Below, piece after piece: positions 1 through 60,264 of a stretch of 64,000 nt of DNA. Source of the DNA: Escherichia coli (GTDB lineage Bacteria > Pseudomonadota > Gammaproteobacteria > Enterobacterales > Enterobacteriaceae); the NCBI RefSeq assembly GCF_050920415.1, contig NZ_CP169309.1; one strand, 5' to 3'. The notes beneath the pieces were generated by a model. That model was not told the origin of the DNA. It saw only the letters and a program-made list of their open reading frames with translations, and made no database searches. Both the position numbers and the translations under genes were made by a program. Numbering within the stretch: position 1 is the stretch's first letter; each line of letters opens with the position of its first letter.

Positions 1-1877
1 GGTGGCAGAGCGTAGCCGGAACAGCCAAGGAATACCCCGGTGCTCGCTGTGCGAATACCCATTTTGCGACCACAGGTCGGGCAGTCGATGCTGGTCAGAA
101 CCATCTGGTTCGGGCGCATACCCCCCTCTTCGGGATCTTTTTCAGCTTTATCTAACTGCTGGGTGAAATCCGAGAAGAAGTGATCCAGTACAGCTTTCCA
201 CTCTGCTTCGTGATTTGCCACCTGGTCGAGGCTGTTTTCCATCTGTGCGGTGAAGTCGTAGTTCATTAACTCACGGAAATTCTCTTCCAGGCGATCGGTG
301 ACGATTTCGCCCATTTTTTCCGCATAGAAACGACGATTTTCTACTCGCACATAGCCACGATCCTGAATGGTCGAAATGATCGACGCGTAGGTAGACGGAC
401 GACCGATACCGCGTTTTTCCAGCTCTTTAACCAGCGATGCTTCACTGAAACGGGCTGGCGGCTTGGTAAAGTGCTGGGCTGGTGTCAGTTCAACGAGCGT
501 CAGAGCATCGCCTTTATCGACTGCCGGTAAGATACGATCTTCATCGCCTTTACGCAGCGCAGGCATCACTTTCGTCCAGCCATCAAAGCGCAAAATACGA
601 CCGCGTGCTTTCAGGCGGAAATCGCCCGCACCAACGGTCAGCGTCGTGGAGTCATATTTCGCTGGGGTCATCTGGCAGGCAACGAACTGACGCCAGATTA
701 ACTGGTACAGTTTCTGCGCATCTGCTTCCATATCCTTCAGCGATTCCGCCATCACATTGACGTCAGAAGGACGAATCGCTTCGTGCGCTTCCTGTGAGTT
801 TTCTTTGCTGGCGTACTGATTCGGACTTTCCGGCAGATATTTCTTACCAAAATTATCGCTGATATAACCGCGAACCATATTTACTGCGTCCTGACTCAGG
901 TTGGTGGAGTCGGTACGCATGTAAGTGATATAGCCTGCTTCATACAAACGCTGCGCCATCATCATGGTTTTTTTCACGCCAAAACCAAGACGGGTGCTGG
1001 CAGCTTGTTGCAGCGTAGAGGTAATAAAAGGAGCGCCAGGTTTACTGGTTGTCGGTTTGTCTTCACGTTCCAGCACGCTGTAGCGCGCTTTTTCCAGCAG
1101 ACTTACCGCAGCCTGAGTTTGTTCTTTGTTGACCGGGCGGAACGGTTTGTCGTTCTGATGAGTCACCTGCAACGCCAACGCATCACCAGATGGCGTGGTC
1201 GTGCTGGCATCGACTTCCCAGAACTCTTCCGGTACGAACGCTTTAATTTCACGCTCACGCTCGACCACCAGGCGGACCGCCACCGACTGCACACGACCTG
1301 CAGACAGACCACGAGCGATCTTTTTCCACAGCAGCGGCGAAACCATATATCCCACCACGCGGTCCATAAAGCGACGCGCCTGCTGGGCATTAACACGATC
1401 AATATTCAGCTCACCTGGTTTGTTAAATGCCTGGCGGATCGCGTTTTTAGTAATTTCGTTAAACACCACTCGGCTATAGCGCGCATCATCACCACCAATC
1501 ACTTCCCGCAGGTGCCATGCAATGGCTTCCCCTTCGCGGTCAAGGTCGGTTGCGAGATAGATGTGGTCTGCTTTTTCAGCCAGTTGTTTCAGTTCAGAGA
1601 CGACCTTCTCTTTACCAGGCAGCACTTCATAGTGCGCCTCCCAATTGTGCCACGGGTCAACCCCCATACGGTTGACGAGAGCGCCACGTTCATCCTTTTT
1701 AGGCTTTTTAGCCGTCTTGGTGGAGGTAGAGTCGGCACTCTTTTTGGCAGCTGAGCCACTGGTCGGCAAATCGCGGATGTGACCGACGCTGGATTTCACC
1801 ACGTAGTCACTACCCAGATACTTGTTGATCGTTTTGGCTTTTGCCGGGGACTCAACGATGACAAGAGCTTTACCCAT
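1..1877 (-). CDS. topA: DNA topoisomerase I, N-terminal ~625 codons; 3' end runs off the window
   Basis: Reverse complement of 1851-1877 reads ATG GGT AAA GCT CTT GTC ATC GTT GAG (MGKALVIVE), the TopA N-terminus; frame stays open to position 1; synteny with yciN and sohB. Confidence 0.88.
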
Positions 1878-2256
1878 ATTCACCTTACCTAATTTGATTC
1901 TTCCAGGAATGCGTCGCACGTTGATAAACCTTCCACTGGCAACGAGTTACCGATATGGACTCGTTCTCTGCGGATATCAACCCCTTGTCGTGACTCTGTT
2001 CACGAAAATTCAGGTGACTGAGTTAACAGGTCTTGGCCTACAGGCGCTATAGCACGACGGAATTTTGGTCGAATGTCAAGCAAATCTATTGCCAGATTGA
2101 CGAAAGCGTCACACTGTACCTGATAAAATCCGATACGCAACTTTATTAGCATGCAAAATCCAAAGTTACCAGTAAGGCGCTCTTGCCACCAGCGTGGTAT
2201 ATTTGTCTGCAAGCCATGCCTGGCGTAGACTAATGTCCTTGTTTAAGGAGTAAATA

Positions 2257-2508
2257 ATGAACAAAGAGACACAACCCATCGACCGCGAAACGCTGTTGAA
2301 AGAGGCCAATAAAATCATTCGTGAGCATGAGGATACGCTCGCAGGGATTGAAGCCACCGGCGTCACGCAGCGTAATGGCGTGCTGGTATTTACCGGCGAC
2401 TACTTTTTAGATGAACAAGGATTGCCAACAGCCAAAAGCACCGCGGTGTTTAATATGTTCAAACACCTGGCCCATGTGCTTTCAGAAAAATATCACCTGG
2501 TTGATTAA
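2257..2508 (+). CDS. yciN: Small conserved protein YciN (83 aa)
   Basis: Track [33 protein letters not shown] recognised as YciN; lies between topA and sohB. Confidence 0.8.
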
Positions 2509-2543
2509 AGCAAAACGCGAGGTCTTACCCTCGCGTTTGTCTT

Positions 2544-3593
2544 TTACATCAATGGCTTTTGCCCCCGCTGCCACCAGCGTAGCAACAATCGATCAGCGCT
2601 CTCTGCCGCGCTGCCGGTGAATCGGTCAATGAGTCGTTTACGCTGCATATAGCGTACATTGACCACTTCACGGCCTTCCATCAGGCTAAGAATAACTTCA
2701 TCACTGGTGTTGATTTCATCAACCAGGCCTTTCTCTACCGCCTGTTGTCCGTACCAGTGTTCACCCGTTGCCACCTGTTCAATATCCAGAGACGGACGCA
2801 TACGCTTCACAAAATCTTTAAATAACTGATGCGTTTCGTTCAGCTCTTCGCGGAATTTCTCCCGCCCTTCTTCGGTGTTTTCACCCAGCAAGGTCAGCGT
2901 GCGCTTATACTGCCCGGCGGTGTGCAGTTCGATATCAATATCTTTGCTTTTCAGGAAGCGGTTAAAGTTGGGCATTTGCGCCACCACCCCAATGGAACCC
3001 ACAATAGCAAACGGTGCGGAAACAATTTTGTCCGCCACACAGGCCATCATGTAACCGCCGCTGGCAGCAACTTTGTCTACCGTAACAGTTAAAGGAATGT
3101 TTTTATCACGCAGACGCTGCAGCTGCGAAGCCGCCAGCCCGTAACCATGCACCATGCCACCAGGGCTTTCCAGACGTAGCACAACCTGATCCTGCGGTTT
3201 AAATGCTGCGAGTACCGCCGTTATCTCTTCACGTAGCGAGTTCACTTCATGGGCGTCCATGCTGCCTTTAAAATCCAGCACCCAGACGCGAGGTTTACTG
3301 TCAGTTGCCACCTCGCCCAGTTTGGCTTTCGCTTTTGCGGCTTTCGCTTCTTGCTTGTGCTTTTTCTTCTGCGCTTTATGCCACTGTTTTTGCTGATGAG
3401 TGTCCATCAGCGCCGCGGCCAGTTCTTCTTTCATCTCCTTATACTGTTCGCTGAGATTGTTGACCCGTAACTCGCCACGCTGGCGTTTATTACGTTGAGC
3501 AACATTGACAATAATGGCGGCAATCGCCGCAATCGCTAGCACAACGGTAACGATTTTCGCCAAAAACAAACCATATTCAGACAACAATTCCAC
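2544..3593 (-). CDS. sohB: Inner-membrane peptidase SohB (S49 family)
   Basis: 349-aa ORF with N-terminal membrane helix and S49 peptidase-like body; conserved position. Confidence 0.88.
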   Translation of the reverse strand: MELLSEYGLFLAKIVTVVLAIAAIAAIIVNVAQRNKRQRGELRVNNLSEQYKEMKEELAAALMDTHQQKQWHKAQKKKHKQEAKAAKAKAKLGEVATDSKPRVWVLDFKGSMDAHEVNSLREEITAVLAAFKPQDQVVLRLESPGGMVHGYGLAASQLQRLRDKNIPLTVTVDKVAASGGYMMACVADKIVSAPFAIVGSIGVVAQMPNFNRFLKSKDIDIELHTAGQYKRTLTLLGENTEEGREKFREELNETHQLFKDFVKRMRPSLDIEQVATGEHWYGQQAVEKGLVDEINTSDEVILSLMEGREVVNVRYMQRKRLIDRFTGSAAESADRLLLRWWQRGQKPLM

Positions 3594-42507: not shown

Positions 42508-42535
42508 TTTACAGCGGCGTGTCATTTGATATGAT
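42508..42535 (+). promoter_or_regulatory. tyrT promoter: -35 TTTACA, 16-bp spacer, -10 TATGAT, GC-rich discriminator
   Basis: tttacagcggcgtgtcatttgatatgatgcgccccgc read directly; stringent-control-type discriminator. Confidence 0.85.
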
Positions 42536-42585
42536 GCGCCCCGCTTCCCCACAAGGGAGCAGGCCAGTAAAAAGCATTACCCCGT

Positions 42586-42670
<85 letters not shown>

Positions 42671-42704
42671 TCTCAAGCATTACATCAAAATTTGAATTAT
42701 CCCT

Positions 42705-42789
<85 letters not shown>

Positions 42790-43501
42790 TCACTTTCAAA
42801 AGTTCCTGAAATCCCCAACAAATCCACAATTAAATATTCTGCCCATGCGGGGAAGGATGAGAAGCTTCGACTAAGGTTCGACTCGAGCGCCAGCGAGAGA
42901 GCGTTGCCGCAGGCAACGACCCGTAGGGCGAAGCGCGCAGCGCTGAGTAATCCTTCCCCCACCACCATCACTTTCAAAAACCCCTGTATTCTCCAACGAA
43001 TCCGTAACTGAATATTCTGCCCATGCGGGGAAGGATGAGAAGCTTCGACTAAGGTTCGACTCGAGCGCCAGCGAGAGAGCGTTGCCGCAGGCAACGACCC
43101 GTAGGGCGAAGCGCGCAGCGCTGAGTAATCCTTCCCCCACCACCATCACTTTCAAAAACCCCTGTATTCTCCAACGAATCCGTAACTGAATATTCTGCCC
43201 ATGCGGGGAAGGATGAGAAGCTTCGACTAAGGTTCGACTCGAGCGCCAGCGAGAGAGCGTTGCCGCAGGCAACGACCCGTAGGGCGAAGCGCGCAGCGCT
43301 GAGTAATCCTTCCCCCACCACCATCACTTTCAAAAACCCCTGTATTCTCCAACGAATCCGTAACTGAATATTCTGCCCATGCGGGGAAGGATGAGAAGCT
43401 TTGACTAAGGTTCGACTCGAGCGCCAGCGAGAGAGCATTGCCGCAGGCAACGACCCGTAGGGCGAAGCGCGCAGCGCTGAGTAATCCTTCCCCCACCACC
43501 A
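42790..43501 (+). repeat. Four tandem 178-bp direct repeats (rtT region), each ending in the last ~19 nt of tRNA-Tyr
   Basis: Unit boundaries 42790-42967, 42968-43145, 43146-43323, 43324-43501; copies 2-4 near-identical, copy 1 diverged at its 5' end; each ends ccttcccccaccacca. Confidence 0.9.
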
Positions 43502-43623
43502 TCACACCCTTAAATACTCAAAACCTGTTACTTCAAGCTAATTTGCCCCGTGGCACCGCGTTTACCGGACCTACAATATCCTCCCCTATATGTCAGATAA
43601 GCGAATCACTCCGCAGCGTACCC

Positions 43624-43650
43624 ATAAAAAAACCCCGCCGAAGCAGGGTC
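43624..43650 (-). terminator. narGHJI operon terminator
   Basis: Minus-strand hairpin accctgc-ttcg-gcggggt followed by seven U. Confidence 0.6.
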
Positions 43651-43669
43651 TGTGTGAACTAAAATTCAC

Positions 43670-59324: not shown

Positions 59325-59729
59325 CAGTTATATCTCCTCCGATGACAGAAATCGGGGGAGATAATATAAATTCCTGCTTATTGTATTTCTTCATACTACC
59401 TGAACAGGTCGTTAATCAGAATTGCGAGCCTGTACCACAACCTGCACGAAACCACTGCAACAGCTGTTGAAAAGCCGGAATGTACTCTTTATTGCAAACA
59501 TTTCAGGGATGAAGTGAAGATGAATTGAGACGTAATATCCACACCAAGCCGGCGTTATCCGGTGAGGCGCAATGTTGCGGGGGCTTTATCCCTGGTGGCA
59601 TTGGTTGCTGGAAAGAGAAAACCCCCGCACGTTGAGAGGTAAAACCTGACAACAGAACGGGGGCTAATCTTGAACCATCAACAATTCAAGAATAGCCGCA
59701 AAATGTTGTCATTACAACAAGGCGGCTAT

Positions 59730-59837: not shown

Positions 59838-60264
59838 GGTGAAAACGGGCGTCAGGCTGCCGTGATGGCAATATGCGCCCGAAACCGGCCGCAGGGGTAA
59901 CAGCCTGCGGCCCTTTTTGTCTTTATCTCTTCTGCAAGTAAATATTGGCAACCCGAGCTGGAAGCATCATCCAGAGCACTCATGAAACGACTGTAACAGC
60001 TGTTGAAAAACCGGAATGCACTCTTCATTGCAAACATTTCAGGGATGAAGTGAAGATGAATTGAGACGTAGTATCCACACCAAGCCGGAGTTATCCGGTG
60101 AGGCGCAATGTTGCGGGGGCTCTATCCCTGGTGGCATTGGTTGCTGGAAAGAGAAAACCCCCGCACGTTGAGAGGTACAACCTGACAACAGAACGGGGGC
60201 TAATCTTGAAACCAGACACTTCAAGAATAGCCGCAAAATGTTGTCATTACAACAAGGCGGCTAT

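Follow-up and report, generated by a model that had tools for sequence, protein, structure and literature searches.

The 64-kb stretch of DNA analysed here (the window, taken at its full length) is ordinary Escherichia coli chromosome, in the order trp-opp-adhE-hns-purU-tyrTV-nar-cha-ldr/rdl-prfA. Two tRNA-Tyr (GTA) genes, the equivalents of tyrT (42586–42670) and tyrV (42705–42789), lie on its plus strand, each identified by ARAGORN, by the Rfam tRNA model and in the RefSeq annotation. A candidate promoter for the tyrT operon is found on the same strand at 42508–42535, 51 nt 5' of the first tRNA-Tyr, with the elements TTTACA, 16 nt and TATGAT followed by a GC-rich discriminator (10/12 in a consensus scan); given where it lies and what is known of the tyrT promoter in K-12, we take this site to be the promoter of the operon. 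The gap between the two tRNA genes is 34 nt long (42671–42704) and holds no RtT unit. From within the 3' end of tyrV, a tandem array of 178-bp tRNA-linked repeats runs along the plus strand from 42771 to 43505 (4.1 copies, 97% matches and a score of 1379 in Tandem Repeats Finder), with direct-repeat spacings of 178/178/178, each repeat unit comprising a 46-nt spacer and a 132-nt structured RtT RNA. The flanks are the same as in K-12, namely purU upstream and convergent narI downstream, and a terminator-like hairpin marks the end of narI on the minus strand (43630–43651; a 9-bp stem and then a T run, found by scan). The whole tyrT-tyrV-array region is 100% identical to that of one complete genome, E. 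coli MFDS1022581, in which the RefSeq annotation (CP169399) places four 'RtT sRNA' features and zero CDS in the array. Further along the window, two rdlD-family antitoxin RNAs (59616–59681 and 60152–60217, minus strand) adjoin two Ldr toxin genes; the copy number of this tandem ldr/rdl locus may be variable between strains.

The four repeats of the array are matched end to end by the Rfam RtT model (RF00391, gathering score 45), each covering model positions 1–130 of 130. Unit 1 (42836–42967, 132 nt), unit 2 (43014–43145) and unit 3 (43192–43323) score 132.8 bits each, and the terminal unit 4 (43370–43501) scores 124.0 bits, all on the plus strand. Units 2 and 3 are identical across the full 178 bp, and unit 4 departs from them by two substitutions, TTC>TTT at 43402 and CGT>CAT at 43437. 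Unit 1 differs from units 2 and 3 at 11 positions, all of them in the spacer, which is of type A before unit 1 (42790–42835) and of type B before unit 2 (42968–43013) and unit 3. The same 19 nt, AATCCTTCCCCCACCACCA, form the 3' end of tyrV and of every RtT unit. The window units are members of the RtT/TLR family of tRNA-linked repeats (TLRs): like other TLRs, they are repeats of a tRNA operon whose 3' 18–19 nt copy the end of the upstream tRNA. Work on TLRs reportedly also includes Egan and Landy 1978 and Rudd 1999.

The TLR family was described by Stenum et al. 2021 (PMC8144298), who proposed that RNase E recognizes the repeated 3' end. According to the same paper, the sole claim of a function for RtT has since been withdrawn, and TLRs are without known function; the rRNA-operon TLRs RrA, RrB and RrF bind Hfq and CsrA, and the 19 tRNA-operon TLRs, including units of the window type, have a CsrA-binding score <0.01 (PMC8144298). 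Going by this literature, the RtT units of the window would be co-transcribed with the tRNAs from the tyrT promoter and then freed by tRNA 3'-end processing, with RNase E recognizing the repeated tRNA-like end.

The window array is the counterpart of the RtT RNA of the K-12 tyrT operon (RF00391; rttR, b4425), with which it shares the locus (purU-tyrT-tyrV-repeats-narI), the 178-bp period, the 19-nt tRNA-identical 3' end and the closing stem. The two nevertheless differ in layout, as K-12 has three units after tyrV where the window has four, and a 209-nt tyrT-tyrV spacer with a GTG-type RtT unit where the window has 34 nt and none. They differ also in uniformity: the K-12 units show 8–9 differences per 178-bp unit, whereas those of the window show 0–2 in the RtT body. 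Within E. coli, the tyrT-tyrV spacer occurs in a short form of 34 nt, free of repeats (the window, B2 strains and many others), and in a long form of ~209 nt with a divergent GTG-type RtT unit (K-12, O157:H7 and DLI.6n).

In K-12, one RtT unit coincides with the annotated gene tpr (b1229), which encodes a putative protamine-like protein, and every window unit holds a six-codon remnant of this frame, ATG AGA AGC TTC GAC TAA. The first copy lies at 42857–42874 on the plus strand and the others at 43035–43052, 43213–43230 and 43391–43408, the last with TTT for TTC, exactly as the sequence-only reading had given them, to the base. That reading had also given a 29-residue Tpr with CAA at codon 6 for K-12, and this protein equals the translation of the first post-tyrV unit of K-12 (b1229, NC_000913.3). 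The first five codons of tpr and the rest of its sequence are nearly the same in the window, where units 1–3 carry 2 differences per 90 nt. One of these falls at the first base of codon 6, a C/U-variable site that is U in every window unit (42872, 43050, 43228 and 43406); every unit likewise has T at the E23 site (GTA), another point at which the window departs from K-12. As all four units stop at codon 6, a 29-residue product is impossible in the window. The four stops are not independent, since one unit type has been copied through the array, and thus no chance statistic is applicable to them.

Alignment to K-12 reveals that the tpr frame is shut in three of the four RtT units of that strain as well. 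The unit between tyrT and tyrV begins GTG AGA ACC TTC GAC TAA; unit 1 after tyrV is the open 29-codon tpr; unit 2 reads ATG...GAC TAA, the same as in the window; and unit 3 passes codon 6 as CAA but stops at codon 10 (TGA). TAA at codon 6 is therefore found in two of the four K-12 units, though not in the annotated tpr unit; the observation that the sequence-only reading had named as its refutation, TAA in K-12 itself, thus holds for part of the copies. Annotation of the frame is itself uneven, in that tpr remains a CDS in MG1655 while PGAP leaves even the open frame of K-12 HMS174 without a tpr CDS, and a comparison of Tpr with the NCBIfam models gave no match even at E <= 10. The designation 'protamine-like protein' is said to originate with Altman et al. 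1981, who reportedly described a small basic product, and K-12 may still make a Tpr peptide; the papers covered by our literature search yielded no ribosome-profiling or tagging data on tpr.

To place codon 6 in a wider context, we carried out two censuses of RtT units across Enterobacterales. The first used a degenerate pattern with C or T at the site on 106 stretches from species-representative genomes, of genera including Citrobacter, Enterobacter, Klebsiella, Kosakonia, Pantoea, Serratia, Salmonella and Xenorhabdus, and returned TAA in 121/164 units and CAA in 43/164. The pattern gave no match to O157:H7 unit 1 or to the UPEC 536 unit, both of which were recovered via annotated coordinates. 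Because the pattern fixed the neighboring bases, the census was repeated with a covariance model, built from 33 units and run on 100 loci, which produced 199 matches; the second census consists of the 139 distinct sequences among the best 150 of these 199 matches (~100 species loci). In this set codon 6 is TAA in 103 units, TGA in 2, TAG in 1 and CAA in 30, such that 106 of the 139 (76%) have a stop there, with the reservation that units sharing an array are non-independent observations. The 'start' codon is ATG in 107 units, GTG in 22 and a non-start codon in the remaining 10.

A start followed by at least 25 open codons is found in only 18 of the 139 distinct units (13%), and these open stretches are spread over several downstream frames, owing to 1-nt indels in hairpin loops; their readings diverge, with ...RCRRQRPEGRS... 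in some and another 13-residue reading elsewhere. The genuine 1-nt indels between RtT units are those visible in a MAFFT alignment (A1). An earlier division of the units into length classes of 125, 127 and 132 nt, considered as evidence of frameshifts, was discarded as an artefact of the trimming rule, which also matched CCCCCA. The K-12-like 29-residue frame occurs outside E. coli in two units only, one from Raoultella and one from Citrobacter. A stop at codon 6 is thus the commonest state across the family, and the open frame is the exception. The premise of the sequence-only reading, that TAA arose in this lineage as a mutation of CAA, is contradicted both by this distribution and by the two TAA units of K-12, and it is more apt to say that the tpr frame is opened now and then than that it was lost in this lineage. 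Among the loci surveyed, a contig labeled 'Chryseobacterium sp. 18061' contains two typical enterobacterial RtT units (locus positions 2639–2945), for which a mislabeled or contaminated assembly is the likeliest explanation.

The behavior of the codon-6 site can be accounted for by the RNA. In the Rfam fold, its first base (model position 37) lies opposite an invariant G, with U-G in 107, C-G in 32 and unpaired bases in 0 of the 139 units. In the alternative fold obtained from RNAalifold, MFE and centroid predictions, this base closes the 3' end of a hairpin loop as its final nucleotide. As the site either pairs with G or sits in a loop, U and C are both tolerated by the RNA. The first base of codon 6 would thus be a pyrimidine position of the RNA that takes U or C, where U yields TAA, the commonest state, and C yields CAA, a minority variant that would open the frame. 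A possible likeness between RtT and tRNA-Tyr (TCGACT---AAGGTTCG against TCGACTTCGAAGGTTCG) was considered as a sign that U is ancestral, but it is marginal and no more than a hint, since 76 of 2,000 shuffles did equally well and a second register is possible.

The initiation region of the frame is similarly embedded in structure. A closing stem of 9–10 bp takes in both the ATG and the AAGG next to it in the MFE, centroid, RNAalifold and Rfam folds alike, and the 'start' A/G faces an invariant U (A-U in 109 units, G-U in 27). In a second alignment (A2), 97–100% of cells are paired in the closing stem and in each of three internal hairpins, percentages that are inflated because A2 was aligned to the model structure. 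Compensatory changes fall within the supposed ORF: pair 50:68 (A2) is U-A in 86, C-G in 29 and G-C in 18 units, pair 56:63 is G-C in 130 and A-U in 9, and all six of the pairs 71–76:83–88 vary on both sides. Compensatory change in the three hairpins and the closing stem beats all 500 shuffles and all slid controls. The main covariation appears also in the MAFFT alignment A1, where pair 47:64 is U-A in 14, C-G in 11 and G-C in 7 units, and covariation in RtT was likewise found by an independent study (PMC7657543).

Some details of the interior fold depart from the Rfam model. The covarying pair 47:64 (A1), or 50:68 (A2), lengthens a hairpin to which Rfam gives just two pairs, and the RNAalifold, MFE and centroid folds have local hairpins at 42861–42880 and 42882–42900 that depart from the interior drawn in the Rfam consensus. 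Pairing is nearly complete both in the long-range helices of Rfam and in the local hairpins, and the helices that set the two folds apart hardly vary, so that either interior fits these data. An extra hairpin at A1 columns 101–103:107–109 was removed, since its register was wrong and 4% of cells were paired.

These data bear on the proposal that the five-codon mini-ORF, MRSFD-stop, is itself a translated and conserved unit which modulates distal tyrT processing or Rho-dependent termination, with Tpr as an accidental read-on; were this true, TAA would be the functional state. The block GGATGAGAAGCTTCGACTAAGGTTCGA is indeed nearly invariant in the 139 distinct units, of which 129 have ATG or GTG and 106 the codon-6 stop. 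However, this block contributes to the closing stem and to a hairpin that is conserved throughout, and these account for its conservation without translation, and the pairing of the 'start' A/G with an invariant U, as A-U or G-U, is what is expected of a stem position. Moreover, the start codon is absent in 10 units, the stop is absent in 30 with no other visible change, and the bases resembling a Shine-Dalgarno sequence abut the ATG with essentially zero spacing. We consider a translated mini-ORF very unlikely.

The population set comprised 5,426 complete E. coli genomes, searched by short megablast with seed-constrained queries, and the resulting counts are lower bounds because nearby SNPs block seeding. 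Codon 6, the site that the sequence-only reading had singled out for checking across E. coli, proved to be polymorphic: TAA-type units are present in at least 1,830 genomes and CAA-type units in at least 4,423. A CAA unit that is closed by TGA at codon 10 occurs in at least 2,966 genomes, a unit free of both polymorphic stops in at least 3,228 (59%), and the exact 90-nt ORF of K-12 in at least 2,029 (37%). Conversely, in ~40% of the 5,426 genomes the seed-constrained query detected no K-12-like unit open at both stops. A few RtT-like matches, in 12–18 places, were on plasmids.

Closer inspection of 15 genomes, a non-random sample drawn from ranked lists, recovered an intact tpr frame in 8 and none in 7, the latter with four different lesions. 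The frame-less genomes are the window strain, with TAA in all four units; O157:H7, with two TAA units followed by one that stops at codon 10 (TGA); BEN2908, in which a single nucleotide is deleted; three strains whose units all have the codon-10 TGA; and one strain without any array. RtT copy number elsewhere in E. coli ranges from zero to five units. Gene content past tyrV also varies: in E. coli Z1323PEC0014, which has no RtT array, fatty acid desaturase and sterol desaturase family genes begin 17 nt past tyrV (locus 1811–3316) and take the place of the repeats and narI, while the B2 strains BEN2908 (locus 1940–2991) and UPEC 536 (1665–2690) have one RtT unit and then an IS4-family transposase at the narI position.

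The distinct variants in the tpr frame of E. coli comprise 17 nonsynonymous, 3 nonsense (Q6*, R10*, R25*) and 4 synonymous changes. Among the transitions alone, 13 are nonsynonymous, 3 nonsense and 4 synonymous, where neutrality would predict ~12, 1.4 and 6.7, respectively. Synonymous changes are not in excess, and there is no sign of purifying selection on a protein. The persistence of the open frame may be explicable by recent common ancestry of the units, without selection, and weak selection is also possible.

The same data allow us to weigh the proposal that Tpr is a real small basic protein of K-12-like strains, lost here as TAA units replaced the open unit and left a pseudogenised locus. 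Several observations are consistent with it, including the frequency of open units (~59% of complete E. coli genomes, with the exact K-12 ORF in 37%), the open 29-codon CAA units kept by the closest relatives of the window strain (2013C-4282, WL297 and EC42405), the Tpr-like frames of 29 codons in single Raoultella and Citrobacter units, and the retention of b1229 in the MG1655 annotation. Against these stand the closure of the frame in 76% of family units and in three of the four K-12 units, and the at least four different lesions that abolish it in other E. coli, O157:H7 included. The variants show no excess of synonymous change and the in-frame substitutions track RNA pairing; the start codon and the bases resembling a Shine-Dalgarno sequence are buried in the closing stem, and the product has neither a curated family nor a PGAP call. 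Tpr in K-12 amounts to one open unit among four, with a frame that is not conserved in other species. We therefore regard a genuine Tpr, lost in this lineage, as unlikely, though less so than a translated mini-ORF. The comparative evidence of family-wide closure, recurrent lesions, absent synonymous excess and absent curated family lends weight to the suggestion of the sequence-only reading that Tpr is probably not a real gene product, and argues that b1229 is a doubtful gene.

The second suggestion of that reading, that this lineage had lost the frame and homogenized the change through the array, requires a separate consideration of how the uniform array arose. Only 5 complete genomes contain the 99-nt window unit (TAA with GTA at the E23 position) in its exact form, and the uniform all-TAA array is rare. 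The other four genomes match the window in the flanks and in the RtT body of the first unit, but their arrays are different: TAA / CAA (open) / TAA in 2013C-4282, TAA / CAA (open) / CAA (open) in WL297, TAA / CAA / TAA / CAA in EC42405, and TAA / TAA in 24A16CRGN010. The CAT marker of window unit 4 is also present in the terminal unit of related strains. As this CAT-marked terminal unit is of the TAA type in one strain but of the CAA type in a second, the codon-6 site either moves between units by conversion or recombination, or mutates recurrently.

The window array corresponds to the [spacer A-TAA][spacer B-TAA/CAT] array of 24A16CRGN010 with two [spacer B-TAA] units in between; what is left between the two arrays is the TTC>TTT substitution and an additional C, both in the terminal unit. 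That unit measures 131 nt (CCCC before ACCACCA) in all four close relatives and 132 nt (CCCCC) in the window, a single-nucleotide difference within its tRNA-like end. Compared at the level of sequence, the window array matches the product expected of unequal crossing-over within the RtT body. In this mechanism, crossing-over between misaligned repeats would have added two copies of a recombinant unit to a two-unit, all-TAA array.

Since tandem 178-bp repeats are difficult to assemble, and the exact four-unit array is found in one complete genome only, it might be asked whether the uniformity is an assembly artefact in which repeats were collapsed or mis-expanded. The TAA unit, however, recurs without a single base change in four other genomes that were assembled independently, and unit 4 and spacer A retain distinguishing bases that match the relatives. 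TAA units are moreover widespread, so that the copy number may at most be in error and the stop codon is not. An artefact is, in our judgment, the least credible of the alternatives, and we return to unit turnover. The array is homogeneous while relatives still have CAA units, and homogenization by unit turnover is therefore real; this part of the suggestion stands. The premise of a new, lineage-specific loss does not stand, as TAA is the commonest state in the family and is present in K-12. The amplified allele is a pre-existing common one and not a new mutation.

The repeats also contain open reading frames on the opposite strand. The equivalent of K-12 ychS (b1228), an antisense ORF of 92 aa whose translation resembles YchS, lies at 43227–43505 on the minus strand, and longer antisense ORFs run over the repeats at 42871–43272, 43049–43450 and 42522–43094 on the same strand (ORF scan). 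These antisense ORFs span 92–190 aa, and one of them crosses both tRNA genes. Because it does so, they are most likely chance ORFs in GC-rich repeats, and K-12 ychS looks like another chance ORF of the RtT repeat.

Overall, we consider it probable that the array is a set of RtT repeats in which the tpr frame is fortuitously open in some units, and that its all-TAA state came about by unit turnover. The locus is a known non-coding repeat with ordinary polymorphism, and thus already-known biology. It does hold a lesson for annotation, as tpr is a CDS in MG1655 and the same sequence is just an RtT sRNA in the RefSeq pipeline; it would be misleading to treat Tpr as an established small protein, or to read gene loss into its absence. 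Our knowledge of tRNA operons is unchanged by this locus, which instead offers a small, clean case of tandem-repeat unit turnover, with a two-allele mosaic in the relatives and one allele expanded here.
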